Shown here one piece after another: positions 30,550 to 48,507 of a stretch of 64,000 nt of DNA (position 1 is its first letter; the number at the start of each line of letters is the position of its first letter). The stretch comes from Candidatus Poribacteria bacterium (GTDB lineage Bacteria; Poribacteria; WGA-4E; PCPOR2b). The position numbers were made by a program, and so were the translations under genes. Below the pieces are notes generated by a model that did no database searches, was not told the DNA's origin, and worked only from the letters and a program-made list of their open reading frames with translations. The stretch lies in contig OZ242326.1 in the NCBI GenBank assembly GCA_965208325.1, positions 320,001 to 384,000 on the forward strand, written 5' to 3'.

Positions 30550-30828
30550 TCCACTTAGGACTTACGCACTTCAAATTTTAGTTGAACGATTCATTGGGTA
30601 TCAAAGGGTATGTTCAGCCTCTACACCACTGTAGGCGGAGTACCTTTTCCCGTATTTGGGATGAAGCATCAAACAAACGAACAGTATGCGCGATAGTCTT
30701 CACAAGTCTTCTCCGAAACCCAACGATCAACTGAGCGAATAGCGAAGGCGATAGTTTTCTCCTCCTGAAGTCTCTTACAGGTTGGTTCTGACGAAGCCGC
30801 GTATCGTCCGGAGTCTAGAATTCACCCC

Positions 30829-30854
30829 TGTAGGAGCGATCTCCGAATCGCGAC
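30829..30854. repeat. GTAG-type REP-like element class 2 (tgtaggagcgatctccgaatcgcgac); other copies at 31273, about 40440 and 41305
   Basis: Near-identical copies seen directly; inverted partners at 31243 and 41273. Confidence 0.8.
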
Positions 30855-30920
30855 CTTTATATGAAACCGCGTTTTTTCTTCAAAACTCGGTTTCTTAATC
30901 GCAGCAAAACCTGTACATTA

Positions 30921-30999
30921 GCCCCAGCGGGGCGGCAGGTATATAGAAAACACAGTAACCCCCACCCCAAAGCCCCAGCGGGGCGACAGGTGTATAGAA
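30921..30999. repeat. Direct repeat pair gccccagcggggcg(g/a)caggt(a/g)tatagaa
   Basis: Two 28-bp copies about 51 bp apart. Confidence 0.8.
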
Positions 31000-31049
31000 T
31001 GCAACATCTTCGTAGATTGTGTGGTTCCGACCACTACATCGTCAGTTCT

Positions 31050-31460
31050 TGTAGGTTGGGTAGAGCGGATAATCCCATATCCGCATCAATGGTAAGTTCC
31101 CACTCGTAATAACCATACGACACCATTGGCAAAATTGCTGTAGCGAAACCCAACGCTTTTGAAACCTCCCGACCACCAAAAGCTATAGTAGTCCTCCCCC
31201 TTACCAAGGGGGTGCTAGAGGGGTCATACACGCTTCGTCAGAAATCGGAATTCCCTCCTACCGACAACCTACTGTAGGACCAATCTCCGAATCGCGATAC
31301 ATGTTCGCCCGATAACTCAACCTTACCCAAAAAAGCTCCCTCTCTTCACTCACAACTTTCCACCGCTTTTCCCCATTAAACTGTTTCACCTACAAAGTTT
31401 TTAAATCCGCGGTTGACATACAACCGATTTTCTTGTATTATATTAAGTGAATGTTAGTAT
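31050..31460 (+). repeat. Intergenic module B copy 1 (REP arms + palindrome + promoter TTGACA-17-TATTAT at 31413)
   Basis: Colinear similarity with 40705-41495. Confidence 0.8.
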
Positions 31461-31792
31461 AGTATCCCGATTGCCGATTGGGGTTAGTTTATGGCGTAAT
31501 TTACACTCCAATAGTTGAGGTGACCACAGATTCAGGAGGCAAGCCTACCCGCGCTCACGAAGGGACGTACTTCTACGGAGAAATCATTGCGCGGTCCTGC
31601 CCAACTCGCATAGACCCGCACAACTTGTTTGACTACCTACTAGAGCACGCTTAAAATATGAATAGTGGACTGAATCCTAACGACGTGGTGTGGGTTTACC
31701 ATTATCCTTAATTGGCCATAATGCTTCTTTTGCCCAAGAGAACCCGCCCTCTTCTCCTATAAAGCCGCCATGTAGAACGGATGGAGCATTGA

Positions 31793-32323
31793 ATGGAAGG
31801 TTTATTTGTAATTATGTTTTTTGTAATTTGCGTGATTACCGCGTATGTATACGTAGGAAAACAGGAACGCCAAAAGCGAAATGATGCACTAATACAGGCT
31901 CTTTGCCGTGAGGTTGCAAGACGCTACATAACATGCTACAGGGCATTGGAGAAAACAAAAGGTTTCGCATCCTTATCTCAAGATGACAAGTATGCGCGTG
32001 TCATTCTGCGAGTTGAGGATGACGTTCATAGCATGAATCAAGCATACGACTGGCTGGGAAATGTACGAAGGGCGCGTTGGTTATCGAAAACTAGTTATCC
32101 GTTATCCTTTAGTGAGATTGTTATATATGCTGCCAACTTAAAAGTGCCGTATTCAAGACCCGGCGATCTAATTGGAAACTGGCACGATGATGAATCTGGT
32201 ATAATTAGCAAAGCGGTGTCTAGCATTATTCCTATTGATTTGTGTTTGGAATCCGACATCGCATACAGATCCAGTGGTAGACGGTATGATGAGGACGACG
32301 ATGTGGAGCAACCTGGGCCATGA
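31793..32323 (+). CDS. Hypothetical membrane-anchored protein
   Basis: 176-aa ORF, N-terminal TM, GGAG RBS. Confidence 0.65.
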   Translation: MEGLFVIMFFVICVITAYVYVGKQERQKRNDALIQALCREVARRYITCYRALEKTKGFASLSQDDKYARVILRVEDDVHSMNQAYDWLGNVRRARWLSKTSYPLSFSEIVIYAANLKVPYSRPGDLIGNWHDDESGIISKAVSSIIPIDLCLESDIAYRSSGRRYDEDDDVEQPGP

Positions 32324-32477
32324 AGTCGCACAGCAAGTGTTTTTTATCACCGTGTTGACCCCATTGGTCGTTTTGGGTGCTGTCCTTCTTTAACACCTAA
32401 ACCGACCTATGTCGCTTTAGGCTGAATCAGATGAATTTAAAATCAAAACGGAAATGGTTAGGAAGGGTGAATAAGCA

Positions 32478-32861
32478 ATGCCGAAGTCGTCCGAATGAGT
32501 TATCCCGGCTTTAGAACATCATGAGGACGTAGTTGATTCAGCGTCAGATTATGAACATGCCGAATTCAATATTTCAAAAGGCGGACATGCAGAATTGGCT
32601 GCACATTCTGATGAAATGATAGCTGTGCCCATTGATGCTAAAGCTAATCTTGTGAACCCAACTCAAATTAGCGGTATAGATGAACTAATTGAGCGGCGAT
32701 ATGCTAGCGATTCCGCATTAAAGTGTATGCGCTATTTAATGATAGCACTTGGGATGACTACCGACGAGGCAGCCAGAGAACCTGAGTATACTCATGAGCA
32801 TCCCGTTGATTTAGAAGCGATAGAGTGGTTCCTCGTTGCTTTTGACAGGGAGATTCAATAA
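32478..32861 (+). pseudogene. Hypothetical gene with an early in-frame TGA
   Basis: ATG 32478 is in frame with ORF 32595..32861, interrupted only by TGA at 32496. Confidence 0.45.
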
Positions 32862-32918
32862 TCCATTACATCCGGGGGACGCTGTCGCCTCCCCCTCAGC
32901 CGTTACAAAGGAGAGTAT

Positions 32919-33110
32919 GTGATGTTCGACGTTGTGAATAAACGTAATGTAAAAATCACTTATCAGAATTGCGAGGCCATGCCTCCCGAATCCGCCCTAA
33001 TATGCGTTATGCATGAGGACTCATCGAAAAACGGTCATATTGAAATCTCTGTTTCTGGCGAAGGATTTATTAATCTTGAAATTGTAGCAAAAGAAGATCA
33101 ATCCAATTAA
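32919..33110 (+). CDS. Small hypothetical protein
   Basis: AAGGAG RBS, 63 aa. Confidence 0.5.
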   Translation: MMFDVVNKRNVKITYQNCEAMPPESALICVMHEDSSKNGHIEISVSGEGFINLEIVAKEDQSN

Positions 33111-33231
33111 AGCTCTGATTAGCTCAATGTTTTTGTCGGTTTACATATGCAAAACTAGGCGCGTTATGCACATGTGTCATTGGTGGAGCTCACCGCACTG
33201 GTACGGTTCAAACGTGGGAATTTAAAACAAC

Positions 33232-33777
33232 GTGGTGGAAAAAGGAGGTATTTCTGTGCAAATATTAGAATTCGCAACAATCGCGTTAGTGGTGGTTACC
33301 GGTGCGATGGTCGCGGTTACATGTTGGTATGCTTGGCTTACACGGAAAATACTAAAAGAACAACACCCAATGCGCGTAGACGATCAAAGACCGCTACTTG
33401 TGATGCGCGTATTATCAGGTGACAATTCGGAGACGTTAAAGCTAATTTTAATCGTGGAAAACGTAGGTCGTGGAGTTGCTCTTACGGTAAAATTTGATAC
33501 GGACGAAAATTGGGCGGAAGTGGCCGGCGATTTGAAAGGCGAATACGGCGATATTAATGACGGTATGCGTTACCTCCCACCCGGAGTTAGCGAGAGATTT
33601 GAAGGAAGACCTTTAACCATAGTAAAACAGATGGCGCGTTCGGCACCGAATAAGACGACAATTATTAAAGTGACATATGAGGATTCATTAAAAAATAGGT
33701 ATTACAATAGTGAGGAAATAAAATTTCGTGAGTTTGGATTGAGGCGCAAATTTTTCCTATCGCAGTTAACGGTCTGA
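33232..33777 (+). CDS. Hypothetical membrane-anchored protein
   Basis: N-terminal TM then VENVGRGVA motif; true start probably GTG after AGGAGG near 33256. Confidence 0.65.
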   Translation: MVEKGGISVQILEFATIALVVVTGAMVAVTCWYAWLTRKILKEQHPMRVDDQRPLLVMRVLSGDNSETLKLILIVENVGRGVALTVKFDTDENWAEVAGDLKGEYGDINDGMRYLPPGVSERFEGRPLTIVKQMARSAPNKTTIIKVTYEDSLKNRYYNSEEIKFREFGLRRKFFLSQLTV

Positions 33778-33800
33778 TATTCACACTGATTTACAGTTTT

Positions 33801-34080
33801 TGTACGTTGGGTTTAACGGGCTCGCGAAACGCAACAATCAGCAGAACTCAAAACGTTATAACAGTGCTCGTAGGTTACTTAGAAACCAGAGAACCACAAC
33901 ACTTTTGAAACCTACGAACGATGCGAAAGCGGTCGGTTGTCCTCTGACTCGACTCAACCTACTCGTATTTTGCCTATCGCTCTATCGCTTGACTGTCACA
34001 CTCCACTCAGGTATATTACCAGTAACTTCCGGCTTTTCAACGCTGACCAAATTCCTACGGATTTGCCTCAAAAACCTCAT
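33801..34080 (+). repeat. REP arms + module C copy 1 with promoter TTGACT-17-TATATT (33989)
   Basis: 33950-34080 is similar to 39000-39125. Confidence 0.75.
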
Positions 34081-34182
34081 TCATTGCAATCCAAAAAATG
34101 GAGGTAAATTCAGAGAAAAATCAATTTTGGTCCAATCTTGCGTCCAAATTGCTTTTGAGCAATATTATTTGTCTAATCTCAG

Positions 34183-34884
34183 TTGGTCGTGCCGTATAAA
34201 ATGAGGTCTTATCTATGTTTGCCATTTAATCACTTTCTTACCATCGAACTTCGGCATATTCTGATTCCGTCATTTTTAACAGCTTATCACTATGGGTGTA
34301 TCAAAATGTTTAGCCGTGCATGCAAATTTATTTGGTCTATTTCGCAGAAACTTACTATAGGTTATTTTGCCATGGTATTCGGATTAGGGGCGCTAATGTG
34401 GGCTGCCTTCGCATTATACAATCTTATATTTCACCCCATCAAGACTACCGTTTGGATATACTCGATTGTTGCTCAGTATATTCCACTTGTATTGTTGTTA
34501 GCATTGTTCTCCGGTGGAATTATAGCCATTGTAATGCGGCTACGCTATAATAGAAAGTCGAACCCCCACGTAAAACCCAAAGAATATTACACGGCGAAAC
34601 TAGAACGTATTCTAAAAGCCTGTGCCGGTATCATAGGGCTCGCGTTCATTTTACTTGCATTGTTCGTGTTAGTTTACGAGAATGCGCCTGTAATCGGTGG
34701 TTTTATTATATCAACATGGACAAAACTCACCAACGCCTTAAACACCACTATCGTCTGTACAATAATTATTTTGTTTGTAATGGTGAATCTTTATAACTCC
34801 TTACGGCGTGAACACCACGAGCTATACCAGGAATTTTGCAAACGCCTAGACGACATTGAGAAACGCCTCGATTCTAGGCGTTAG
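34183..34884 (+). CDS. Hypothetical multi-pass membrane protein
   Basis: About four hydrophobic segments; start uncertain. Confidence 0.6.
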   Translation: MVVPYKMRSYLCLPFNHFLTIELRHILIPSFLTAYHYGCIKMFSRACKFIWSISQKLTIGYFAMVFGLGALMWAAFALYNLIFHPIKTTVWIYSIVAQYIPLVLLLALFSGGIIAIVMRLRYNRKSNPHVKPKEYYTAKLERILKACAGIIGLAFILLALFVLVYENAPVIGGFIISTWTKLTNALNTTIVCTIIILFVMVNLYNSLRREHHELYQEFCKRLDDIEKRLDSRR

Positions 34885-35222
34885 CATAGTAAAATTACAA
34901 TGTCTCAATGTTTGTAATTACGCCGAAAACCAGGCGGTTTTGTACGTCGGGTTTAATGCTCAATTACCTGAATAGGATCGACAGAGCGAATAGCGACGGA
35001 AATAATTACCTAGCGCGTGCGATATATTCTCGCTTCGCAGACGTAAAACCTTCACCGACTCCAACCCAGGGCTGTTGCAACAGTCAAGCACAGTCAATTA
35101 TCCAAGATTTACTAACCTTTTTGCAATACCTGGGAGAGTTTTGCCGTTCCTTTAAGACATTTAGCGTCAAATTGCACGTTTTATTGCGACAATTTTTCAA
35201 TCGCTGAATTAAGAGAAATAAC

Positions 35223-36674
35223 ATGACACAGGAAAGCAAACAGGAACTGAGACGGTTACTAACACAAGCGATGCGACGTTTAGTGATACGATATAAATAC
35301 GGCGGCCCTACATCAATCCCAGTGGCTCTATATAGAAGGTACTTGCAGGAACGCTGGAGATACTACGGTATAGATTTCTTTTCGTTTGCATTTTCGATTC
35401 AACTTGTCCCCGATGTAGCCGATGGCTCCACAAAATCAAGTCTTCTTGCTTACATAAGAAAACAGTTAGCACCCTTTATTGGTGAAAGTACGGACCCAGA
35501 CCTTGATTGTGTCCGCAGCACCAACTATTCAATAGAATGCAATTCTTCATATGGAGATCATCTAGTTACTCATGGAGCCGGCCCCGTTCCGTTGTTTATG
35601 GTTTTAGAACGCCTTCTGGAAATTACCCTTGACCGGGGAATACTGGAAGCGGTATCATTTTTTGACCGGTGTAGTCGCCCCGAGGGTACACAGGTATTTC
35701 TTTGGGACGTTGCATTCCTTGAAGGAGTAAAGATAGAGTCAGAAATCGAACTCTGTAATGGGGTGCGACTTATCCCTTTGCCTTCTGGGGAAATATCATC
35801 GAAAGTCAAACAATATCTGCCCGCTGTTTCTGTCTTTGCCTTTACCGATCATGCGGACTCTTTTTTCGGCAGAACGCTGCTCGTTATTGACCGCCCCGCA
35901 ATTTCTATGCTTCGTAAACCTTCCGAAAAAGCAATTCAGAACGGAACCCGGATTGACAATCTCCCTTTTCAGGTTGAGGTGCCCAATGTAAAATTTCGCA
36001 ACCACCAAGCGATTGGTTCTTTCGATAAGTTATTCTGTCAAGCACTATCGTTAGTATGTAATTCGGCCGTTAAAATTGTAATAACAGGATTTTTTTTGGA
36101 GGAAGAAAACTCGTTCAGTCAGACTCACGGCCCTGGCAAGATGTTTAGGTACTTCGATTCACTCGGAAATCCTCCTGAACCTGGGAAAGTTGAAATAGAA
36201 AAAGCCAATCGTCTATACGAGAAATTGGCTGGTCTAAATTCAAATGATAGAGAGAAATTGCAGATTGCAATCGATAGATGGATAATGTCAAAATCAGAAA
36301 GGAGTCACATTGACAAAATCATTGACCTAGGTATAGCCATTGAAGCGCTATATGTCCCAGATGGGCGCAGCGGCGAGATCAGATTTAAATTGGCTGTTCG
36401 TGCAGCTTGGAATTTGGGAGAAAATGAAGAACATCGAAACAAGTTAATGAAGGAGTTTCAGGAAATATATGATTGGCGTTCCACGATTGTTCATACAGGA
36501 AAACTGCCCAACAAGACAAAGAAAACACCCTTTACTCCAGTAGAGGTAAACCAATTTATCGCACGAGCTCAGGATTTGTGCCGGGATTCAATTTTGAAGG
36601 TTTTAGAAAAGGAGAAATTCCCTGATTGGAACAACCTGATACTCTCCGGCCACGCAGAAAGCACAACTCAATAA
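35223..36674 (+). CDS. HEPN (ApeA-like) domain protein
   Basis: C-terminal IDLGIAIEALY...YDWRSTIVHTG with Rx4H motif. Confidence 0.75.
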   Translation: MTQESKQELRRLLTQAMRRLVIRYKYGGPTSIPVALYRRYLQERWRYYGIDFFSFAFSIQLVPDVADGSTKSSLLAYIRKQLAPFIGESTDPDLDCVRSTNYSIECNSSYGDHLVTHGAGPVPLFMVLERLLEITLDRGILEAVSFFDRCSRPEGTQVFLWDVAFLEGVKIESEIELCNGVRLIPLPSGEISSKVKQYLPAVSVFAFTDHADSFFGRTLLVIDRPAISMLRKPSEKAIQNGTRIDNLPFQVEVPNVKFRNHQAIGSFDKLFCQALSLVCNSAVKIVITGFFLEEENSFSQTHGPGKMFRYFDSLGNPPEPGKVEIEKANRLYEKLAGLNSNDREKLQIAIDRWIMSKSERSHIDKIIDLGIAIEALYVPDGRSGEIRFKLAVRAAWNLGENEEHRNKLMKEFQEIYDWRSTIVHTGKLPNKTKKTPFTPVEVNQFIARAQDLCRDSILKVLEKEKFPDWNNLILSGHAESTTQ

Positions 36675-36916
36675 ACTCTCCAAAAACTAACCAAACCAAA
36701 AGAACTACACAATCGCTGCGCTATACAAATTGTCCACCCGAGTGCGGATTTGCATCTTTGTGCGGTATAGTTTAAATTCTTGTAGGTAGCATTTCCTTAC
36801 TCCGTACAAAATTGTTACGATGAAAAAACCACTAAACGCCTCCGAAATACTTGTCTTTTTTCGTTCAAAACCCTTTAACCCATCCTACAAACGCCGAGAA
36901 AAGGAGGTTTGTTATC

Positions 36917-37507
36917 ATGTCCGATGTGGACTACCGGAAATATATGCAATCTGAGGAATGGAAAGCAAAACGACAGACGAAACTGGACGATTGCCGCGGC
37001 AAGTGTGAATGTGAAGGCGGCTGTTACCGGCAAGCGACGCAAATTCATCATCTGCATTACGACACATTGGGAAACGAATGTTTTGACGACTTGCAAGCAT
37101 TGTGTCCGAAATGCCACATGAAAAAGTCTAATGTTCGGGATTTTTATGGTTATGTTGCGAAAGACTGTTGCCAACGCACCCCGCTTAGTGAGGAGGAGAA
37201 GCCGAAGAAAGCCCTGCCGTATTCTGTCTGGCATGAAGCAAACTTTCGTTATCAGATGGACCGCGAGCGATGCACACAAATCGCCGAGACGTTAGGGACG
37301 GACCCCGTAATCGCAGCGCTGCTCGATAACCTCGAAATCATGTTTGCTTGCGGTGACATTGCAGTAGAGGCGAAAATTACAAAGGCAATCGGGCGGTTTG
37401 CCGATGTTGTACCCGCCAAAGAGGGCGGCTTGGATGGGTACGGGCATGAAACCGTTTACAAGTTAAAACCCGAATTTTCAAAACACTTCTCCAATGATGA
37501 GAATTAA
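36917..37507 (+). CDS. HNH endonuclease domain protein
   Basis: YMQSEEW, Cys cluster, QIHHLHY..LGNE..DLQALCPKCH; AGGAGG RBS before ATG 36917. Confidence 0.8.
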   Translation: MSDVDYRKYMQSEEWKAKRQTKLDDCRGKCECEGGCYRQATQIHHLHYDTLGNECFDDLQALCPKCHMKKSNVRDFYGYVAKDCCQRTPLSEEEKPKKALPYSVWHEANFRYQMDRERCTQIAETLGTDPVIAALLDNLEIMFACGDIAVEAKITKAIGRFADVVPAKEGGLDGYGHETVYKLKPEFSKHFSNDEN

Positions 37508-38053
37508 ACGCATACCTCGCAGTCGCCGCACAAGTTACGCAAGCAGTGGAAGTCATTCGCCCCATGATAAGGCTAGTTTTGTAGATTCAGTTAAGCGCTC
37601 AAATACCCGATAACGTCGTAAAATAGTTTTGCCTACCACGAAATCCGACGCTGTTGGTCGCGCCGTACCGGTACGTCTAACGATACACATCCGATTACAA
37701 AAATCGCTGGATTAGGCTACTTCACACAATTTTGTTACCACAATGAAATTACCGAACTCCGACGTACATTTGCTTTTTTTCCTACAACACAGCTTCACCG
37801 CCCCGTAAAACCTTAAAATAGACACGAATTTTGGACTGAAAAACAGATAAATATTGAATTAATGTTGGAAACATGATATATTTTTAGACAAAGAAAAAGG
37901 GAGTAGTTGTCAGCTACTCCCCAAAAAATGTGAGCCGATTTTCGTTAGCCTAGCACGCAGACAAAAACGGGCTTTTTTATTGTACCTGACATTCTCGCCG
38001 AATGTCAAGAAAATCACAACTCATTCTTCAAAAATTTCAAGGAGAAGGTACAT

Positions 38054-38392
38054 ATGTTTGGCTTGAAGTTCCGAAAGAAGGAAACTCTTGAGTGTAATGC
38101 GTATCAAGCGTTAGAGGCGCGATTTGACAGGTTGGAGCGGGAGATGAAACGAGAAAATGACGATCTTCATGCTTCAATTGATTCTGCACGTGAGCCGATT
38201 CAGGAACTGTGCATATTAATGAAAGAATCTCATACAGATGTCAATGAGTTAAAAGCTTCGTTGCGTGCTTTAGAACGTCAATTGGAGGATATCAGCGTTG
38301 AATTGAAAAGGCTGCGTGCGCCTTTTGGCGGAATTCACTATTTCGATATAAATGAATCAGTTGAACCACCGTCAAATCGTCGGTATGGGTGA
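38054..38392 (+). CDS. Hypothetical coiled-coil protein
   Basis: Heptad pattern; GGAG RBS. Confidence 0.6.
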   Translation: MFGLKFRKKETLECNAYQALEARFDRLEREMKRENDDLHASIDSAREPIQELCILMKESHTDVNELKASLRALERQLEDISVELKRLRAPFGGIHYFDINESVEPPSNRRYG

Positions 38393-38479
38393 AATTAAAG
38401 ATTTGGTTAAAATACCTTACGACGGGGCGTGAGTTGACGTTCCCACAACATTGTGGAAAACCGCTAAATTTTCGTCCTT

Positions 38480-38842
38480 ATGGAGCTAAATATGTCTGAT
38501 ATCCTGAGACAAATAACGCTGGTAAAAGACGCTGAAGATCGCCGTGTAGTTCGTTTTGAGAGTAGAACTAAATTTACTCAGCTCGTTCTGGCTGTTCATG
38601 ATGCTTTGGTAAGCATAGACAAAAAGCTGGCTGAAATAGAATCTGAAGCCAATGGTATTGCTGACCAAACGCACCAGAAAGGCATGGATACCAGAGTTGA
38701 GTCGAGGAGGAACGTTCTTGGAGAAGATGTATCAGATTTGTTTGAACAACTTGAACTTCTCTGTGAGGTTATTTGTCCTGCTGGGGAATTGTTAACGCGG
38801 TACAAAAATCAATTAAAACATAGATTTTCTTCCTTTATGTGA
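38480..38842 (+). CDS. Hypothetical helical protein
   Basis: 120-aa ORF. Confidence 0.55.
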   Translation: MELNMSDILRQITLVKDAEDRRVVRFESRTKFTQLVLAVHDALVSIDKKLAEIESEANGIADQTHQKGMDTRVESRRNVLGEDVSDLFEQLELLCEVICPAGELLTRYKNQLKHRFSSFM

Positions 38843-38901
38843 TATGACTTTCGACTTGGTGCGGTGAAACGTATTCTGACCAAACACATTAAATGAAAAC
38901 T

Positions 38902-39125
38902 TGTAGGATGAATTGAGCGGCATCAACCGAGCCGATACCGAAGGATTGACTTAACGGCTAGTGAGTGCGATAGATATCAATAGTCTTTTATTGTCTTCTC
39001 CGAAACCCAACCTACAAGTGCATTGCAAATCGCTCTGTCGCTTGACTTTCACATTCCACATCCGATATATTACTATCATTTCCGGTTTTGAAACCTCGCC
39101 AAATTCCCACGGGTTACCACTTAAA
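38902..39125 (+). repeat. REP arms + module C copy 2 with promoter TTGACT-18-TATATT (39042)
   Basis: tgtagg...cgaaacccaacctaca followed by the block shared with 33950-34080. Confidence 0.75.
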
Positions 39126-39347
39126 ATTTTTTCATCCCTGTGCAAAGGACTGGCGTTAGTTCACTCCGCCACCCGATGAAATAGTAACGGGGCGTCTGAA
39201 AGCATCAAACAAACACCACCGTAAATTATGAAGTGACTCATCCCTATGCTTTTTCATACGGGGCCAGCGCTGATTAACCGATTCCGATTCTGGTTACGGA
39301 AATAGAGTCTTAAATCCAAAAATCAACGTCTCAAATGGAGGTAATCA

Positions 39348-40217
39348 TTGAACAGAAACTGGACGGAACTCCTCAAATCCGTAATTCCTAGACCTTGCAT
39401 CAATCAACGTCCGTTTGTATGTGATGGTTTTCCTGATGAGTGTGAAGTAATTATAATCGGTCAAAATCCAAGAAATGAATTGTGTGTAGACTGGTGGGGC
39501 TTTTGGGACAATAGCTCTGGTTTCGATCGCCTTCGCCTTTCAGATGTCTACCAACAAAAAGGCTTCGACTTAAACACTGGGACACGAGGACGTTTAAACA
39601 AAATCAAGGATAGAGGCGTACAGTGTGTCGAAACCAATGTATATAGCTCTGAAGGTTCGTGCAACCGGAGCGACCGCATTCCTAACCAAACCGTTCTAGA
39701 ACTACTGTTAAGAAACATGCCACACCTCGAGTGGGTAATTGTACATGGCGCCATTGCGCACGACTGGATAAAAAAGTACAGAAATTTGATTCGCTTACCA
39801 GACAATCGGCTTCTCAAACCCTGCCATTTCAGAAACATAAGCGACGACAGGCTAAATCAGATTTGCAGACAGGTAGAGAAAGCCAGATATGAATGGATTG
39901 AAGAAGGCAAACAACTATTACTTTATAATCACATTACTGCAGAACGCGCCATTGCTAGTAGAAATCCTGAACTTCCACCCATGTCGACGCAAGAGATGTT
40001 ATGGGAACAGAGCAATGCGGCCCGCAATTGGTCAAATCGTGTAGAACTTCGTTTTGGTGCACGGGCATTTGCCCCTTATCCGTATGCGCTTCATAGTTTC
40101 AAGGAAAACACTACGGACCTCGATGTTCAAGACCGATGGTCACAATGTAAAGCCCATCTTAATAAAAGTATCGCTAGTCTAGAGAAATATCTTTCCGAAC
40201 TAATCAAGACTTTGTAG
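39348..40217 (+). CDS. Uracil-DNA glycosylase-like domain protein with extra C-terminal region
   Basis: IIIGQNP, VETNVY, VIVHG, PCHF pattern; GGAGG RBS. Confidence 0.55.
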   Translation: MNRNWTELLKSVIPRPCINQRPFVCDGFPDECEVIIIGQNPRNELCVDWWGFWDNSSGFDRLRLSDVYQQKGFDLNTGTRGRLNKIKDRGVQCVETNVYSSEGSCNRSDRIPNQTVLELLLRNMPHLEWVIVHGAIAHDWIKKYRNLIRLPDNRLLKPCHFRNISDDRLNQICRQVEKARYEWIEEGKQLLLYNHITAERAIASRNPELPPMSTQEMLWEQSNAARNWSNRVELRFGARAFAPYPYALHSFKENTTDLDVQDRWSQCKAHLNKSIASLEKYLSELIKTL

Positions 40218-40519
40218 GCACACGGCGCAATTGAGCGCGCGTACAAGCGACAGTACCGTGTTTTTCGAATTTAATAGGGCACACCCTTTGAAACTCCTGA
40301 TAGTTTTAGATTCACACGGACACGTTATTGAACAATGGATAGAACGATGAACTGAACGAATCGCGAAGACGATAGTCTTGATTCTTCTAAGTTACGCCGA
40401 GTCGCCAAACCTGCCGTCGCGAATCCAGAAATCGCGCCGTGCAGGACAGATCTCCGTATCGCGACCTTTGAATAGTAGTCCAATAACGCGCAAGGGCTAC
40501 GAGATTCGGCTGCGTTTCA

Positions 40520-40700
40520 ACATCGCATGATTATGCGCATTCTCGATCATTGCACATCGTTCAATCATACAAATCACAGTCCAGACAATAAAATATGCTC
40601 AAACCCCCTACAAGCCCGTCAATACCGCCAAAACCCCTCTTTTTTTGCACTATTACTTGTTATCTGTTAATAAGGGTGTTACACTAGTCTCACTATGAAG
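40520..40700 (+). repeat. Module D copy 1 (promoter-like block ending in ATG)
   Basis: Similar to 44600-44774. Confidence 0.7.
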
Positions 40701-40704
40701 TTTT

Positions 40705-41495
40705 TGTAGGTTGGGTTAAGCGGGTATCCCCAAATACATTGGTATTGAGTATTTGCCGTCCAATCACCGATAAAACTTAATAACAACATGCGCGTAGCGA
40801 ACCCAACGCTTTTGGTAGAATCGTACCGGCGGGGTGTTTCGATTCACGTTCCAACTCCAAAAAAACGCCGGGTTAAGCTTCATCAGTTTTGATCATGTAG
40901 GCAATCAAAGCTACTACCGCTCGCCGCATACTCGCGTTGGTTGGTCAAAATCACTCAACCCAGCCCACAAGGGTACAAGGGTAAAGTAATCCTCTCCCTT
41001 ACCAAGCTTACTATTACCCACAAGGCCGCGAAGTCGGATAGGGTACGGGTTGTCTCCCCTCATTCTTGACGTAACCATGCTGTGCAGCACCTGTGGGAAG
41101 GGCTTCCTAGCCCTGATTATCGGGACAGGGATGTCCCTCGTACAGTTTATGCCATACCGAAATGAACAATCGTTCTTAGCCCCAACATTGACGGCGTCTA
41201 CCTCCGGAGACTTGTGGGTAATAGTAAGCTTACCAAAGGGAGCTAGAGGGGGTCATACACGCATCGTCAGACATCGGAATTCGCTCCTACAAGAATCCAA
41301 CCCCTGTAGGAGCGATCTCCGAATCGCGACTTATATTAGACCGATGACTCAACCCCACCCAAATAACCTCCCCTTCTTCACTCACAACTCTCCACGGCTT
41401 TTACCCATGACACTTTTTCACCTACACAGTGCTTTAATCTGCGTTTGACAAAAAACCAATTATATCATATTATATTAAGTGAATGTTCGTATAGA
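40705..41495 (+). repeat. Intergenic module B copy 2 with promoter TTGACA-17-TATTAT (41445), interrupted by a MITE
   Basis: Colinear with 31050-31460 apart from insertions. Confidence 0.8.
41006..41229. mobile_element. MITE, 224 bp, perfect 19-bp TIRs, 7-bp target duplication
   Basis: gcttactattacccacaag ... cttgtgggtaatagtaagc flanked by ttaccaa on both sides; the equivalent site at about 31201 is empty. Confidence 0.9.
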
Positions 41496-41613
41496 TTTTC
41501 GATGGTAGGTTGCGCTGCGAAAAGCTAAATCTGCCTACAATAGCTGCAACCGGTTTTTCTGGCCACTGGCGGCTAGCCACTGGTCGCTGCTTCCCAACAA
41601 AGGAGAAATTGCT

Positions 41614-42027
41614 ATGAAAACGAAACACAGTCTTTTTATAAGCGGTATTGTTGGCGGAGTCATAGGGAGTTTGTTAACGGCGTCGTTGGTTTCACCAGTC
41701 ACAGCGCAAAGGGATAAGTTTGACACGATCCAGTGTTCGCGACTAGAGGTTGTTGATGAAACGGGCATGCCGAGGGTTGCTCTCATGACCGATGAAGGCA
41801 GTGGATTTGTCGGTATTGGTAGCAAAGATAAGGGATTTCTGACAATGGCAAGTCACTTTATAACTTTCGGTGGAAAGGAAAGCAAACCCGTGATAAGGCT
41901 CAGTATCGACGAACGAGGCGGGCATGTGTCTGTCTACGGCAAAGGCAAAGGTCAAGCGGCGATGGGAATCAACGAATACGGAAACGGCGTTGTGAGTACA
42001 TGGGACAAAAACGGCAATCGGCAGTAA
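41614..42027 (+). CDS. Secreted beta-rich hypothetical protein (SPVTAQ family) copy 1
   Basis: Signal-like N-terminus; SPVTAQRDKFDTIQCSRLEVVD; AAGGAG RBS. Confidence 0.8.
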   Translation: MKTKHSLFISGIVGGVIGSLLTASLVSPVTAQRDKFDTIQCSRLEVVDETGMPRVALMTDEGSGFVGIGSKDKGFLTMASHFITFGGKESKPVIRLSIDERGGHVSVYGKGKGQAAMGINEYGNGVVSTWDKNGNRQ

Positions 42028-42032
42028 ACTCA

Positions 42033-42170
42033 ATGACTGAAACACAACAAAATTTCACAATGCGACTACTAGATTTGAAAAGATGTTTAATGACGGGTAC
42101 ACTCATGTCTGTGATTTCCGACCTTGTTGCCACGGCGATTGGTACCCTTGCGAAGGACATTATACCTTAA
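42033..42170 (+). CDS. Possible 45-aa peptide
   Basis: Open frame MTETQQNF...AKDIIP filling the gap between the two paralogues; no clear RBS. Confidence 0.3.
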   Translation: MTETQQNFTMRLLDLKRCLMTGTLMSVISDLVATAIGTLAKDIIP

Positions 42171-42186
42171 CGAAGGAGGCATTAAA

Positions 42187-42612
42187 GTGTTTAAAGCGCA
42201 AAATTGGAAGATTGGGATGGTTTATGCGATGCTCGGAACGATAATCGGGTTGCTCCTTTCGCCTGTCACGGCGCAAAGGAATAAGTTTAACACAATCCAG
42301 TGCTCTCAGTTGGAAGTTGTTGATTATGCGGGCGAAGTGCAAGTGCATCTCGGTACGGATATCTATGGCGGTAGTCTCATAGTTTTCAGAGAAGGGGGCG
42401 GTTTTGTGACGATAGGTAGCTCTGAACACAATAGTGGCCTCTCGGTTTTTGACAAAGAAGAGGACTATTTAGTGATGATAAGTAACAATAAACACGGTGG
42501 ACAAGTGGGTGTCTTTAGCAAAGGCAAAGGCGATGCGACAATGGGCATAGACAAATCCGGCAACGGTGTTGTGGTGACTAAGGACAAAAACGGCTATCGA
42601 GATTGGAAGTAA
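42187..42612 (+). CDS. Secreted beta-rich hypothetical protein (SPVTAQ family) copy 2
   Basis: SPVTAQRNKFNTIQCSQLEVVD; GTG start after AAGGAGG. Confidence 0.8.
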   Translation: MFKAQNWKIGMVYAMLGTIIGLLLSPVTAQRNKFNTIQCSQLEVVDYAGEVQVHLGTDIYGGSLIVFREGGGFVTIGSSEHNSGLSVFDKEEDYLVMISNNKHGGQVGVFSKGKGDATMGIDKSGNGVVVTKDKNGYRDWK

Positions 42613-42633
42613 ACCCAAAGGAATAATGCAACC

Positions 42634-42855
42634 ATGCGAATGCGAGCGCTCATCGATAACGTTTTGCTGACTATGGCGGACGATGACGGAGACTATCTCA
42701 ACGATACCCGTATGCTTGCGTTTGCCGACAAAGCCCTTCGGGAAATAAACGAGCTTTGCCGCTCGATTCACGGCGCGCGTAAAATCAGTGTCAATGCAGA
42801 ACAAGCCAACTACGGAATGCTAGACACCTTTACCAGTTTCTGTAGGTTGGGTTAA
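42634..42855 (+). pseudogene. Truncated gene, possibly phage head-tail adaptor-like
   Basis: Stop supplied by the REP at 42841; N-terminal pattern loosely recalls phage adaptor proteins (weak). Confidence 0.4.
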
Positions 42856-42976
42856 GCGGGCCAAATTAAACACACGAAACATGTCGAACGGATATCGGCG
42901 TTTGAATACGTTCGGACCTTGTTAAGATACACCGAACCCAACCGAAAAAACTTAACATATAGAAAATTCCCAATAC

Positions 42977-43888
42977 ATGCATTACATACGCGGCAAGGCC
43001 AATAGATATTGGTACTGTGAAAGTTTATGGCAGTTATTTAAAGACCTCTTAAAAACTCCATTTGAAAATCAGCCTCAGACCGGCCCTTGGGGTGACGAGG
43101 TCCTAAGTAGAGGTTCCGACTACCATCGACGCGAAATCCTAGATCGCGGGAGGACAAATTTTGATGAACCATTTAATGGGCTTTCTCCCGATGATAAGGT
43201 GTTGATTTACTGTAATCATTATATGCCTATGCACCTTATTAGTTCGTATCAAATATTTCGTGTTCACTCGACATATTTTACGAATCTTCTCGCATCAGTT
43301 GATAATAATGTTGTCTTTATCGACTTTGGCTGCGGCCCATTAACTTCAGGTATTGCATTTTGGGCTTTTGCAAGGCGAAGCAACATTTTTTATTTGGGGG
43401 TTGATTCTTCACATGCCATGCGTGCAAAGGCGGAGAATGTCAACCAATATGGACCCTTCCAAGATTTGGATCCTTTCTTTAGCCGATTTAAACTCATTGG
43501 TAGCCTTACAAAACTGCCCAAAATATTAGACAATATCGTAACGAGGCATAATAAGATACTGATTGTATTCAACTTCTGCTACTTCCTCGCTAGCCGGTAA
43601 TTAGATGCCAATAACTTGAGTAACTTGAAAGATGTCATGGTTCGAATTGTGGAACAGCACAGTAGACAAAATATGTGCATGGTGTATCAAAACCCTGACT
43701 TACCGCAATTACATGAAAATTGGGAAATCCTCAAAGCTAACCTTTCGGGGTTTAGCAGTGTAACAAATGCACCCAATGTCACATGGTTCAACTATGAAAG
43801 CCTAATTACTGGTTCGCGCCACGAAACCACAGTTTACTATGATATACTTTGCAAAGACGAAATTCGACATCAGGAGGACCGGCAATGA
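42977..43888 (+). pseudogene. Class I SAM-dependent methyltransferase-like gene split by an in-frame TAA
   Basis: FIDFGCGP and YLGVDSS motifs; ORFs 42977..43600 and 43616..43888 are in the same frame. Confidence 0.7.
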
Positions 43889-44541
43889 CGCAACCAGCCC
43901 TCTTTCCCGATTTAGATCTTCAACCTCCTTCGCCACATCCTTCACCAAAAAATGAGGACGTTACTGATACAATCAAAGGATTCAATTACATTGAACACTA
44001 CATTGATAAAAATGAACATGAACGATTATTAAAACAGATTGACGAGAACTCGTGGCTACAAGATTTTAAGCGGCGTGTTCAGCATTATGGTTTCAAGTAC
44101 GACTACAAAGCGCGGAAAGTCAACTATGATATGCGTATTGGGCATTTGCCTGAGTGGCTGCAAATACTTGGTCAAAGATTACATGAGGATGGTCACATGC
44201 CGGCAAAACCAGATCAAGTTATTGTCAACGAGTACAAACCTGGGCAAGGGATTTCCAGTCACATTGATTGCGAACCTTGTTTTGAAAATATGATTGTCTC
44301 TCTGAGTTTGGGATCGAGTTGTATCATGGATTTCACGCACAAACTTGACAAGACAAAAAAAATGCCTGTTTGGCTTGCACCGCGAAGCATTATCGTATTG
44401 AAAGGTGAATCAAGATATTATTGGTTACACGGTATCGCTCCGAGAAAATCAGACCAGTGGGATGGTCAAACGTATAATAGACAACGCCGAGTATCGTTAA
44501 CATTCAGAAGGGTGATAATCGAAAACCCTTCAAGGGGATAA
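43885..44541 (+). CDS. AlkB family 2OG-Fe(II) dioxygenase
   Basis: RRVQHYG, VNEYKPGQGISSHID, WLHGI, RVSLTFR; AGGAGG-like RBS, ATGA overlap with the upstream stop. Confidence 0.9.
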   Translation: MTQPALFPDLDLQPPSPHPSPKNEDVTDTIKGFNYIEHYIDKNEHERLLKQIDENSWLQDFKRRVQHYGFKYDYKARKVNYDMRIGHLPEWLQILGQRLHEDGHMPAKPDQVIVNEYKPGQGISSHIDCEPCFENMIVSLSLGSSCIMDFTHKLDKTKKMPVWLAPRSIIVLKGESRYYWLHGIAPRKSDQWDGQTYNRQRRVSLTFRRVIIENPSRG

Positions 44542-44771
44542 CTGTTGCTCGAAGCTTTTTCGAATCTACACATCGGTTTAATTGGTTCGGCAGAGCGCAT
44601 CCGATGAAGTATGCCCTCCTTTAATCATTGCGCATCATTAAATCACACAAATCTCAGCCCCGAAAATAAAACCCTCTCAACCCCTTACTACCCCGTCAAT
44701 AACGCGATCACCCCTCTCTTTCAGCTATACCACTTGACAACTGTTACAATATATGGTAATATTTTACCGTT

Positions 44772-45275
44772 ATGCTAAAGCAAGAATTATGCTTTAGCGA
44801 ATCGGACATCGACTTCACAATCGATCTCTTCGCGCACTACGGCGACGGCAAAGCCAACGCCAATCGCGTCATTGAGGAATTGTGTGAATACTTTGGGATA
44901 GCGGACAACGCAAGTAACCATAAACTGTTGTCAAACAAAATCCGCACCTTTAATCCCAACAGAAAGGATTGCGCCGATCAGTATCGCAAGCGTTATCTTA
45001 TGAAACGCACAGACAATCTCAAAAATAGACACGAACCCGACGGAATCTATTCGCGGCATAAACAGAAAATCTATTACCGCGCCGTTGACGTGTTGTATGA
45101 AGAGATGACGCCAGCGCTCGCGCTCAAGGTCATTGAAGCCGAAGACCGATTTGCTATCGAAAACAAAAACTTAAACTTACAAGAAAGGATCGAACGCGAA
45201 TGTTTAGCTGACGATACGGGAGATAGTTCTTTCCGTCATGGCGAAACGCAGCCAGATTTACAGCAACCACAGTAG
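44772..45275 (+). CDS. Hypothetical protein, candidate terminase small subunit
   Basis: 167-aa helical protein overlapping the terL start; position only, no motif recognised. Confidence 0.45.
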   Translation: MLKQELCFSESDIDFTIDLFAHYGDGKANANRVIEELCEYFGIADNASNHKLLSNKIRTFNPNRKDCADQYRKRYLMKRTDNLKNRHEPDGIYSRHKQKIYYRAVDVLYEEMTPALALKVIEAEDRFAIENKNLNLQERIERECLADDTGDSSFRHGETQPDLQQPQ

Positions 45276-47049
45276 GTTTCTGAAAATCTATCGCGCAAAT
45301 CATAATGCCCGCGCACTGCACGCCGTCGAGAGAACTGAAGAGGAACAAGACATCTATCTCCGCGGTTTTGATGATGTCTTAGTCTTTGCCAAGACCCATT
45401 TCCCGGACGTATTCACGGTGAAATGCGGTCCGCACGCGTCTCCTATCCTAAACTGCATTCCCGCCGGTGACCGCGGAAGGCGTGCCAATATCATTGCGCC
45501 CAGAGGATGCGGCAAAAGCACTTACATCGCCGTCATCTACGTACTCCACTGTGTCTACTACAAAGAGGAATACGAGCGCCGCGGATTAATGCCCGATAGC
45601 TTCATTATGATCGTAAGCGGCACTGAAGAACTTGCCACTGACCGCCTGCGCGACATCCGTATCAAAATCGAAGACCATCCCACCTTCCGCCACTTAAAAG
45701 GTCAAGCCAACTGGAGCGCTGATCTCCTCGAAACCCGAAACGGCGTTCGCATCTTGCGCGTCGGCAGGCGCGGCAGAATCCGCGGGCAACTCAAAGACCT
45801 TGCCCGACCCACGCTCATTATCCTCGACGATGTAGAAAACGGTGAGGAAATCCAAAACCCCAAAATCCGCGATAAAAACTGGAAATGGTTCAACGAGGAT
45901 GTTATGCCTGCCGGTCGTATCGACGGCAAGACGAACTTCATTCACATTGACACCGTAAAGCACGAAGAAGCCATCTCCAAACGACTGCATCTCCTTCCAG
46001 ACTGGTACACCCAATTCTACCGTGCTATTGAGAATCCCGTAGACCTGCGCCACCCCGCCGCCGAGCCGTTGTGGGAAGATTGGGAGAAAATCTATACGGA
46101 CATGACGCTCGAAAAAGACGAACGCGACCGCCGGGCGCGCGCATTTTTCGAGCGTCACAAGGGTGAAATGCTGGATGGCGTGCAAGAACTCTGGCCGGAA
46201 ATGCTCTCGTATACCTACATCCGGCGGCTCATCTGCAACGAAGGTTACATTTCCGTCATGCGCGAGCGTCAAAACTCGACGCGCGACCCTTCAAAAGAAA
46301 TCTTCAACATGGAGAGTGCCGTTCGCTTCAAAATCACGCCCGACGGACTCTTGAGAAGCGACGGACGCATAGTCCACTGGAGCGATATCGCTGGCGCCAC
46401 CGTTTTCCTCGATTGGGCTGGCGGCAAGGACGCTTACGATTCCTGCTTCGCCGCCGCTGTGTTCGTGTTGTGGGTACCGCTGCCCCACGCGAATATGAAA
46501 CGCCGCCGCGACCCGATCGCCGCCCTCTCTAACGCCCACGCCTACGTGCTTGATGTCTGGATGGACAAAGTGCCTGTCACTGCGCAATTAGAAGAGACAT
46601 TTAAACTCATTAAGCGTTGCGTCAGCGCAGTGCCGCACGTTCGTTTCGATTCCATCATGCTCGCTGTCGAGGACATCCCGAAAGACACCGGCAACGCGAT
46701 GCACGACATGATTAATCGGGCGTTCGAGGTTGCGCGGAAAAAGTATCAGATGACCTCGCTCGTCCGCATGCAGTACTACCCGCGAAGCATGCGAAAGTTA
46801 GACCGTATCGCCGCCTTGGAACCGCCTATCACCAACGGCTGGATTGCATTCAACGAGACGCTATCCGAGGAGTTTATGCGTCAGTTGCGGCAATTCCCCA
46901 CCGGCGATTTCTGCGACGGACCCGACGCTTTGCAAGGCGCAATAGAGTTGCCCATTACCCGCTTCCCCGCCGAACGGCTGCCGAACGGAATGCCGGAAGA
47001 TGACGATTCGGACCAAATGATGCACATTGTAAGGAGCTATCTATCATGA
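45238..47049 (+). CDS. Phage terminase large subunit
   Basis: Walker A APRGCGKS, Walker B LIILDDVE, RNase H-like FLDWAGG, VE and FP..DFCDGPDAL. Confidence 0.85.
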   Translation: MAKRSQIYSNHSRFLKIYRANHNARALHAVERTEEEQDIYLRGFDDVLVFAKTHFPDVFTVKCGPHASPILNCIPAGDRGRRANIIAPRGCGKSTYIAVIYVLHCVYYKEEYERRGLMPDSFIMIVSGTEELATDRLRDIRIKIEDHPTFRHLKGQANWSADLLETRNGVRILRVGRRGRIRGQLKDLARPTLIILDDVENGEEIQNPKIRDKNWKWFNEDVMPAGRIDGKTNFIHIDTVKHEEAISKRLHLLPDWYTQFYRAIENPVDLRHPAAEPLWEDWEKIYTDMTLEKDERDRRARAFFERHKGEMLDGVQELWPEMLSYTYIRRLICNEGYISVMRERQNSTRDPSKEIFNMESAVRFKITPDGLLRSDGRIVHWSDIAGATVFLDWAGGKDAYDSCFAAAVFVLWVPLPHANMKRRRDPIAALSNAHAYVLDVWMDKVPVTAQLEETFKLIKRCVSAVPHVRFDSIMLAVEDIPKDTGNAMHDMINRAFEVARKKYQMTSLVRMQYYPRSMRKLDRIAALEPPITNGWIAFNETLSEEFMRQLRQFPTGDFCDGPDALQGAIELPITRFPAERLPNGMPEDDDSDQMMHIVRSYLS

Positions 47050-47291
47050 CTGAATTATCAATAATATCTGAATTAACTAACCCGAAAAAGGCTTCAAAAA
47101 TGAGCATTCTCAACTTATTTTTTCAAATGCTCACAAATGCTCAACCCTGCAAACCCGCTCCCTGTCTAGCTTCGTGCCCATTTTCGCCAATTTTCGTATA
47201 TTTCAAATGCTCACAGAATGCTCAAATCAAAAATCCCAAATCTTGTTCCCAATCGGGTCGCCAAAACCCCAAATCTTTAACAGATTTTGTA

Positions 47292-47330
47292 TTGACTTGT
47301 GTCGAATAATATAATATTATATTAAGTAAA
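47292..47330 (+). promoter_or_regulatory. Third copy of the module-B promoter
   Basis: TTGACT-17-TATTAT followed by attaagtaaat, as at 31413 and 41445. Confidence 0.7.
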
Positions 47331-47441
47331 TACAAATAAAGTATTCAGTGGGTGGTTAAACGTCTTTACTAGCCACTGTCCACTAGTCACTAACCACTGT
47401 TTTTGAAAGGGAGATTTAACATGTTTAGGATTCAGATTTTT

Positions 47442-47552
47442 TTGCGCCGTGGCAGGCGACGCTAACATCCCGATAATTGTGCAAAGGCACCCAAACAAAC
47501 TACCGAACCCAATATAGACCAACTTAATTTTCCAATGCTGACTGTTACACAC
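47442..47552 (-). pseudogene. 5' fragment of an SPVTAQ-family gene in inverted orientation
   Basis: QHWKIKLVY...TIIGMLASPATAQ matches the N-terminus of 42187; AAGGAGG RBS; similarity stops after TAQ. Confidence 0.7.
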
Positions 47553-48136
47553 TGTGTTTCCCTCCTTTTTTTATGTTACGGACTAAGCCCTCAAATAATT
47601 CGCGGATACCGACACTCCCAAAATTCCAATCGTCCCAAGGCGTACGGTGTGGCAGTTGGAAAACACGCCAAAATTTCATAGTTAACTTCCGCGCCGACTT
47701 CGGTGCGAACAGCTCTAAACCCAGTGTTAGACTGAATTTGCGCGTTTTTTCGTCCCCATAAAATCGCTGTGTTGCGTAGGAAAACTATGAAAACTATGAA
47801 ATTTTCACACAATCACTCGTTAAATTTAACCATAACCGAATGTATCCGCGCAACGATTTTCTCAGGCGCATCCCTGATAAAGCGTTTAACTCGCTTTTTC
47901 GGCTGAAACCGCTATTCGCGAGTGCAACCTTAACAATCGAATTTTACCGAGATTAGTGCAGGACAGATGTAATTGGCATCACGGTTGGCGTGTTGACACG
48001 CATTCCGCTATGATTTAATATAACGCATTTTCCCAGAGAAGTTGATTTTTTTCGGTAATGCCGCCCCAAGAACGCACAATTCATTTCCCCAAAACGAACT
48101 AGACAGGGAAGGTAACATCTCTGTAAACAATGAAAA

Positions 48137-48291
48137 TAGGACCTACCCAGCTCAGTTTGTAGTAGCGCAACTTATTGCGCGTCCGGCAGATAGGTCACGT
48201 CCTTGTACATCACCTGACATATTTTTTATGTAAAAACGGGCAATAAATTGTCCTACTATGAACCTTTGGACGTTCAACAGCGTAACTCCTA
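48137..48291. repeat. MITE/REPIN-like element with degenerate taggacttacgca-type ends and inner inverted REP pair
   Basis: taggacctaccca ... agcgtaactccta; inner gtagtagcgcaacttattgcgcgt / acgggcaataaattgtcctactat. Confidence 0.65.
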
Positions 48292-48507
48292 CCACTATCA
48301 CATCTGATTGACATTATTGAATATAAGGCAGCGGTAAAAACCCCAGATTAGGTCGGTTTTTGCTGGTAGCTTCGCCGCTTCTAGTGTATAATATTGTAAA
48401 TTAAATCGGCACAGGCATTACTGTTAAACGAGATTTTCATCATTACTCAGAAATTCAACCGGTTTGCTTGGATCAAGCTTGTCTTATTCGATAATTCGAT
48501 TGGCGGC

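Follow-up and report, generated by a model that had tools for sequence, protein, structure and literature searches.

A probable phage-derived island with high-copy, GTAG-tagged REP hairpins of fixed length in a Poribacteria genome

A 17.7-kb region in the genome of a Candidatus Poribacteria bacterium is most probably a horizontally acquired, phage-derived island populated by high-copy, GTAG-tagged repetitive extragenic palindromic (REP) hairpin repeats, which are non-autonomous and do not capture genes. The island lies in a stretch of 64,000 nucleotides (G000:C1:320001-384000, hereafter the window) of G000, a single-contig genome of 4.71 Mb with a GC content of 49.4%. An earlier interpretation made from the letters of the window alone, the sequence-only reading, had seen here an integron-like array of co-oriented cargo genes delimited by hairpin sites and shuffled by a recombinase acting in trans; passive REP accumulation in a decaying prophage was named as the simpler alternative. 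The cassette reading is not supported; the best fit is the simpler alternative, in which REPs pile up passively in a phage-derived island under decay.

The prevailing, long form of the repeat is a unit of about 112 nt consisting of GTAG, a GTTGGGT arm, a variable middle part of about 66 nt and an ACCCAAC arm. The stem of 7–9 bp encloses about 80 nt, and the distance from GTAG to the 3' arm is 93–95 nt. The left end of the unit (L-end, the 11-mer GTAGGTTGGGT) was counted in G000 with up to one mismatch. With this tolerance, 472 copies are found, their consensus being AGtTtTT-GTAGGTTGGGT-(T/A)(G/A)AGCGG; the GTAG positions beside the stem-loop are 94–97% conserved across these copies, and AACCCAAC is located 90–99 nt downstream of 223 of them. 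A DNA profile built from 277 genome copies and searched with nhmmer against the window and the genome gave 300 genomic matches (171 on the minus and 129 on the plus strand). In a collection of 284 units with looser ends, the arm spacing is 94 nt in 128 units, 95 in 51, and 93 in 49. For 219 of the 277 units that were folded, the two arms form a stem; the interiors are no more structured than shuffled sequences (mean z −0.46), and the ungapped identity of random pairs of interiors is 29%. In a short form, of which G000 has about 15 copies, GTAG and GTTGGGT are followed by a loop of about 12 nt (11–13) and then by ACCCAAC. The GTAG REP comes in two discrete sizes, one of about 33 nt and one of about 112 nt. 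Since GTAG abuts the stem and REP-sized versions exist, the sequence-only reading was right to describe the sites as expanded GTAG-tagged REP hairpins.

Other short modules join the units in mosaic intergenic clusters, namely a GCTTTTGAAACC tail and module B (GATCAACTGAGCGAATAGCGAAGGCGATAGT, built of sub-repeats of about 22 nt), which follows 29 of the 284 units and is found inside the loop of some. A coding role of the units was considered and rejected, because the arm spacing shifts by 1 nt in either direction. Capture of DNA by the units was also rejected: only 29 of the 284 interiors have a counterpart in DNA that is not annotated as a unit, and these counterparts are other repeats.

In the window, the sites are of the TGTAGGTTGGGT...AACCCAAC type. 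The motif TGTASGTTGGGTT (up to two mismatches) was found 10 times versus 2.43 expected, and none of 100 shuffles gave 10 or more matches; all ten are located between 30.7 and 43 kb, and the enrichment on which the sequence-only reading was built is therefore real. Eight arm pairs had been listed, with loops that indeed differ from one another, and three of them are intact: in 31050/31144, 40705/40798 and 42841/42933, the arms are exactly complementary over 7–9 nt and pair in the minimum-free-energy fold of the DNA. The other five are degenerate or mis-paired. The 38902/39001 pair is held only by TGTAGG/CCTACA (6 nt), and for 30630, 33801, 34941 and 37580 the complementarity is at most 5 nt and the listed arms remain unpaired in the fold. 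The real partner arm of the 33801 site, a short REP form, lies about 26 nt downstream and not at 33950. The profile search of the window returned three strong units (E 3.5e-19 to 2.2e-12) and two weak ones on the plus strand, as well as a weak full-length unit and a partial L-end on the minus strand (Table 1); all matches with E < 0.01 lie within the island. The two minus-strand copies were missing from the earlier list, and because of them the sites of the window are not uniformly co-oriented.

The genomic distribution of the units indicates dispersal of the unit itself. Among units separated by more than 5 kb, 140 pairs are at least 85% identical; the similarity starts 1–10 nt before GTAG in 121 of them and ends 0–9 nt after AACCCAAC in 58. 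The 31050 unit, for example, is 95.5% identical over 112 nt to a unit at C1:3242374, 2.9 Mb away, and the flanks are unrelated. A clean presence or absence of a single unit between G000 and G002, the closest relative, was not found: flank tests and one alignment both led to messy, rearranged intergenic DNA, in which a target site could not be defined. According to crude ORF (open reading frame) calls, on which the orientation counts also rest, 237 of the 284 units are intergenic; like REPs, the family is high-copy, mainly extragenic and clustered. The orientation is random with respect to genes (132 of the 237 units are co-oriented with the upstream gene and 123 with the downstream one), and neighbouring units agree in about half of the cases at all distances (63/133, 11/21, 23/44, 19/35 and 26/56). 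Among 41 clusters of at least three units, 10 have a uniform orientation, most of these being tandem arrays; many unit clusters are tandem arrays without genes between the copies. Given this random orientation, the three strong units on one strand in the island are unremarkable. The GC skew of G000 shows no clear origin and terminus.

The island occupies an intergenic hotspot. Its limits (30613–48344) follow from its flanks, which are conserved in three congeners (G001, G002 and G003), and from the empty or different content of the site in them. In G001 and G003, the flanking oxidoreductase and PSCyt/PSD1 genes are only about 55–190 nt apart, and the island is absent. In G002, about 2.5 kb are found at this site: an element of the IS3 (insertion sequence 3) type, a small ORF, module B and one unit, which is 81.7% identical to the 42841 unit of the window, over the unit only. 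The GC content of the island is 42–47%. Its outer boundaries do not coincide with units, against the expectation of the cassette reading: at the left junction, the first, degenerate site begins 18 nt inside, and no unit is present within 5 kb of the right junction. In Logan contigs of two other sponge metagenomes, the flanks have a depth of 58–94 and the left half of the island a depth of 0–3, which fits a strain-specific island; rare circles cannot be revealed by contigs. Contig joints that skip 10448 nt (30855–41305) were considered as a sign of excision and rejected, their source being a high-copy repeat with a depth in the thousands. No tRNA gene was found near the island, and no integrase, portal, capsid or att repeats were recognised in it.

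The phage derivation of the island is indicated by its genes. The long ORFs between 31793 and 47309 are all on the plus strand, as had been claimed, and the minus-strand ORFs in this interval overlap longer plus-strand ORFs or repeats. These co-oriented genes are most probably what is left of phage operons and include genes for an HNH endonuclease, a methyltransferase-like protein, an AlkB-like oxygenase, a TerS-like protein and the terminase large subunit (TerL). Paralogues or homologues of the island genes are scattered through G000 and its relatives. The TerS-like gene is followed by TerL, and its paralogue at C1:904360 likewise precedes a TerL gene. Four further full-length TerL paralogues are encoded in the genome (C1:904805, 2462814, 3138170 and 4687856), and no recognisable portal or capsid gene follows the one at 904 kb. 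Presence or absence at a conserved site, together with the TerL and HNH phage hallmarks, is what is seen in prophage remnants and genomic islands. It can also be noted that a single 4.7-Mb genome holds five full-length TerL genes. The cargo had been called defence- or DNA-repair-like: the HNH, AlkB-like and methyltransferase-like genes, and possibly a uracil-DNA glycosylase (UDG)-like one (a lead only), agree with this, but no defence system was recognised beyond the methyltransferase match.

The presence of the repeats is best explained by the following course of events. The units spread as separate 112-nt modules (approximate length) and collect in intergenic DNA that is variable and non-essential, where at least four other families of repeats are found as well. 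An HUH transposase of the Y1 type, similar to the REP-associated tyrosine transposases (RAYTs), might mobilise them in trans as single-stranded hairpins; if mobilisation were limited to copies with the right arm spacing, the length would stay fixed and the interior would drift. Homologous recombination between copies could then passively aid the shuffling of neighbouring gene modules. G000 encodes two RAYT-type Y1 genes (C1:1955941-1956273 and 3321944-3322279), each flanked by its own, different REP, so that the RAYT flanked by the same REP that the sequence-only reading had proposed to look for was not found in this genome, nor was such a REPtron found among the other Y1 loci examined, a subset of all Y1 loci comprising 30 loci from 40 relatives and 20 from Nostoc, Okeania and another Poribacteria genome. 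As regards other repeats at Y1 genes, module B flanks them as inverted repeats in G029 and G038 (L071 and L061), and AGCCCCAGCGGGGCG(A/G)CAGGT(A/G)TATAGAA does so in G001, G002, G032 and G007 (L062, L069, L070 and L063). The latter repeat has 37 copies in G000 at up to three mismatches; it is an orphaned REP family there, because no Y1 gene of G000 is flanked by it.

The step of RAYT mobilisation is one that we only infer, because no cognate transposase was found for the unit and an L-end is located near 1 of the 52 Y1 loci examined (L071 in G029). Both results weigh against the explanation given above, and several other observations do the same. The long form, with 112 nt and an unstructured loop of about 80 nt, exceeds the size and loop described for REPs. 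The interiors fall into 155 clusters (122 singletons), and the median spacing is 93–95 nt in 111 of the 155; in genus g11, which belongs to another family, the spacing is 92–96 nt in 31 of 41 copies (23 nt, as in the short form, in 5 of the 41). Fixed spacing combined with near-random interiors points to a constraint beyond plain selfish spread alone. Of the 407 kb sampled and aligned to G002, 85% lies in syntenic blocks no shorter than 1.5 kb, but these blocks contain only 1 of the 18 units (binomial p 1.5e-13). In addition, L-ends bound the HNH module both in the window and at its second locus, C1:3684812-3685499 (90.6% nucleotide identity), with a reversed L-end fragment on the left and an L-end on the right in each case. 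The concentration of units in variable DNA and the bounded HNH module are also predicted by a model in which the units serve as recombination sites.

Two versions of such a model can be considered. The long-form units might be working sites of a REP-hairpin system, driven by an HUH enzyme or a recombinase, that inserts and exchanges gene modules among phage-derived islands, and the arm spacing held across two families, the placement at synteny breaks and the recurring HNH module could be read in this sense; we regard this as very doubtful, but if it were true, the system would be a functional analogue of the integron with a different site and enzyme. The integron-like version proper, in which the units are attC-like sites at the 3' ends of cassettes and a recombinase or HUH nuclease acts in trans, seems extremely improbable. 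In its favour, the arms resemble the R-box (GTTRRRY/RYYYAAC), mismatches form a zone inside the hairpin and the loop varies, the genes of the island share one orientation, the units are concentrated in variable DNA, the HNH module lies between L-ends at two loci, and the G002 segment homologous to 38501–39011 terminates inside the 38902 unit. Moreover, 7 of 36 unit ends lie no more than 15 nt away from a boundary of fine-scale synteny versus 0.98 expected, although several of these boundaries are unit-to-unit alignments and the count is partly circular. The integrase IntI, however, is not found in the genome: a search of all of it with TIGR02249 gave 41.1 bits at best, versus a cut-off of 265, for an Xer-like ORF 700 kb away. 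The polarity of attC sites is 5'-RYYYAAC ... GTTRRRY-3', and that of the units is the reverse, 5'-GTTRRRY...RYYYAAC-3', on either strand. About 18 ORFs of the island are accompanied by about eight sites, three of them intact units, and the profile search found no unit in the 4.4 kb from the methyltransferase-like gene to TerL; minus-strand copies stand inside the island. The roughly 300 genomic copies, many of them in gene-free tandem arrays, are randomly oriented and disperse without adjoining genes, and the island boundaries are away from units. Two features of the repeats between core genes had been named in advance as speaking against the cassette reading: random orientation was found, whereas equal density was not, the units being concentrated in variable DNA. 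Repeat accumulation with homologous recombination between copies fits the recurrence of the HNH module, the end of the G002 segment and the placement of the units.

Two further explanations address the fixed length. The units could be a family of miniature inverted-repeat transposable elements (MITEs) that a DDE transposase moves in double-stranded form, the 94-bp spacing (about nine helical turns) reflecting a small synaptic complex. The sharp boundaries of the units, the 22 of 284 units that are fully symmetric with AGTTTTTGTAGGTTGGGTT inverted ends, a spacing kept within 1 nt around an interior without a fold, and symmetric forms of about 128 bp in other phyla are consistent with this. We nevertheless consider it unlikely: the consensus flanks show no target-site duplication, the two ends of most units differ and have only 7–9 nt in common, a GTAG tag and short hairpins are what one expects of REPs, and no longer, autonomous element bearing a transposase and these ends is common to a limited sample of 20 loci (6 kb each) around copies in three low-copy genomes. 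Alternatively, host selection might maintain a structural element that needs a fixed arm distance, mobility being secondary; it could act at the DNA level, as a site of a nucleoid or replication protein, or at the RNA level, as a 3'-end stabiliser or a small RNA with a closing stem. The arms and the 93–95 spacing, kept across two families of the order with near-random interiors, and the 18-nt unit end, identical across phyla among the matches listed, would agree with such a role. The random orientation relative to genes counts against a transcript-linked function, exact L-ends vary fourfold within the genus (43 to 187 per genome), the units are found almost only in variable DNA, tandem amplification is common, and Rfam has no match to the family (a scan of 28000–50000 gave one chance-level match and none for the units). 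Host selection is therefore quite improbable as the main explanation.

The repeat family extends beyond Poribacteria. When 596 Gb of genomes were scanned with an 18-mer, at least 119 stretches matched, about 70 being expected by chance according to our own arithmetic. Among the matches listed, the full two-arm hairpin, in its short form, could be aligned in Nostoc, Oscillatoria, Anammoxibacter, Pseudomonas, Hydrogenophilales, Chloroflexia and Okeania records. Because the hairpin is complete in these records, with both arms, the family is truly cross-phylum, and its ends are identical in Poribacteria, Cyanobacteria, Desulfobacterota and others, among the matches listed. This identity, the two discrete sizes and the constant length of the long form give the family a modest interest. 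In loci from Desulfobacterales, Microcoleaceae and other groups, the same 11-mer forms inverted pairs of about 128 bp, a fixed length other than the 104–112 nt of Poribacteria.

The features of the island are given in Table 1. Three other repeat families are packed at its left end: a GTAGGAGCGATCTCCGAATCGCGA-type repeat, also present at 31274 and 41306; the REP flanking the second RAYT of the genome, around 30893; and the AGCCCCAGCGGGGCG...TATAGAA repeat, with two copies in the window at 30920 and 30971. The MITE-like element at 41004–41231 is inserted in a repeated promoter-bearing segment that is also found at 31180–31480, and the ORF 41050–41448, which overlaps this element, is probably not a gene. 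The ORFs 41614–42027 and 42124–42612 are tandem paralogues (about 45% identical) encoding small proteins whose N-terminal part contains a hydrophobic segment; the genome has about ten further members of their family, several of them near other unit clusters and TerL paralogues. The 42841 unit overlaps the end of the ORF 42634–42855. The 289-aa protein had no family match in profile-library searches, and the remaining ORFs of the island had none either. The IS3-type element of the G002 hotspot (C1:387750-389050 of G002) recurs in that genome at C1:1766900-1767240, in the 5' end of a homologue of the window ORF 38480–38842. Outside the island, two 32-nt direct repeats 101 nt apart are located at 29363–29495, between the glycosyltransferase-9 and oxidoreductase genes, and the megablast alignment with G002 breaks there.

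Table 1. Features of the island and its repeats (positions in the window).
Position	Strand	Feature	Basis
30613..48344		Strain-specific accessory island, 17.7 kb, between the GFO/IDH/MocA oxidoreductase and PSCyt/PSD1 genes	Congener comparison
30631..30760	+	Degenerate L-end, R-end (AACCCAAC at 30716) and module B (30724–30754)	Sequence, fold
30830..30999		Further repeat families crowded at the left edge of the island	Three families
31042..31175	+	Intact REP unit of the long form (GTAG-GTTGGGT ... ACCCAAC), spacing 96	nhmmer E 3.5e-19; arms pair in fold
33793..33912	+	Weak profile match; real element is a short REP-type hairpin from 33802 (GTAC-GTTGGGT ... ACGCAAC)	Profile, fold
34941..35075	+	Degenerate site, module-B-like stretch, arms unpaired	Sequence, fold
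35223..36674	+	483-aa protein of a widespread family	HEPN/ApeA-like Atlas lead, score below 0.9
36844..36895	-	Partial reversed L-end, left end of the duplicated HNH module	Profile, sequence
36851..37507	+	HNH endonuclease gene	phrog_333, E 1.3e-7
37580..37655	+	Degenerate shortened site, arms unpaired	Sequence, fold
38900..39019	+	Degenerate unit, module-B-like interior, symmetric right end (CCTACAAG)	Profile, fold
39348..40217	+	289-aa protein, possibly UDG-like (lead)	Atlas 0.85, cluster with UDG on 25% of members
40698..40819	+	Intact long-form REP unit, spacing 94, interior a singleton	Profile, interior clustering, fold
40859..40970	-	Degenerate full-length unit	nhmmer E 5.3e-4
41004..41231		MITE-like element, 30-nt inverted ends (AAGCTTACTATTACCCACAAGG...), about 12 genome copies	Sequence
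42834..42944	+	Intact long-form REP unit, spacing 93, interior in a 14-member subfamily	Profile, clustering, fold
42977..43600	+	Methyltransferase-like protein	PADLOC PDLC01079, E 1.8e-18
43849..44541	+	AlkB-like 2OG-Fe(II) oxygenase	Family match; paralogue C1:4131843-4132529
44772..45275	+	Probable small terminase subunit, by position only, no family match	Overlaps TerL start
45238..47049	+	Phage terminase large subunit	phrog_38, E 7.5e-55

Integron attC sites are imperfect hairpins with a conserved 7-bp outer box (GTTRRRY/RYYYAAC), a mismatch zone and a variable loop. The island sites resemble them in the hairpin box, mismatch zone and variable loop and in their location downstream of co-oriented genes. 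They differ in that the GTT end is distal to the loop, that is, reversed, and in that IntI, attI and Pc are missing. Integron arrays have one site per cassette, in a single orientation and confined to the array; the units are genome-wide, in both orientations, often with no genes between them, and are copied independently of genes. Since the integron candidacy fails, the locus is an ordinary accessory island. It shares with prophage remnants and islands in hotspots a low GC content, strain specificity, terminase and HNH genes, co-oriented small ORFs and an IS element at the identical site of the sister genome. It differs from prophage remnants in having no recognisable integrase, att repeats, tRNA gene or structural genes, and in the four further TerL paralogues of the genome.

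Escherichia coli BIMEs (bacterial interspersed mosaic elements) are mosaics of REPs with other short motifs, and their spacers are conserved motifs of fixed sequence. REP dimers (REPINs) and REP clusters have reportedly been treated by Bertels and Rainey in 2011, Nunvar in 2010 and Ton-Hoang in 2012. As in BIMEs, the units are mixed with short modules in mosaic intergenic clusters; unlike the spacer of BIMEs, however, the spacer here keeps its length and not its sequence.

The closest likeness is to GTAG-tagged REPs. In the text of Di Nocera et al. (2013, PMC3733652), REPs are described as sequences of 20–40 bp with loops of 2–27 bp, and 24 GTAG families, with an unpaired GTAG and a stem, occur as singles, inverted pairs and clusters. 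As far as that text goes, the present repeat agrees with them in the unpaired GTAG directly 5' of the stem, in its hundreds of extragenic copies as singles, inverted pairs and tandem clusters, in coexistence with other REP families and RAYT genes, in its occurrence in distant phyla and in the 11–13-nt loops of the short form. The minority short forms fit the 20–40 bp size, and the prevailing form, with 112 nt, a hypervariable unstructured loop and a tightly fixed length, does not; a further difference is that no RAYT flanked by this REP was found, the single L-end near a Y1 locus aside. The motif is absent from the text and four supplements of PMC3733652, in which the consensus sequences of the GTAG families stand in a figure. 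Searches with the motif string matched only unrelated primers, and a literature search for Poribacteria and repetitive extragenic palindromic sequences returned one unrelated review. The present family was therefore not found in print, as far as such searches of text can tell, figures not being searchable. What is unusual here is the long REP form, with its fixed length and free interior conserved across two families. The repeat pattern is also relevant to the question of why repeats of this kind are a mark of variable regions in the genomes of sponge symbionts, and the combination of fixed length and free interior provides a handle on what a REP-mobilising enzyme measures.

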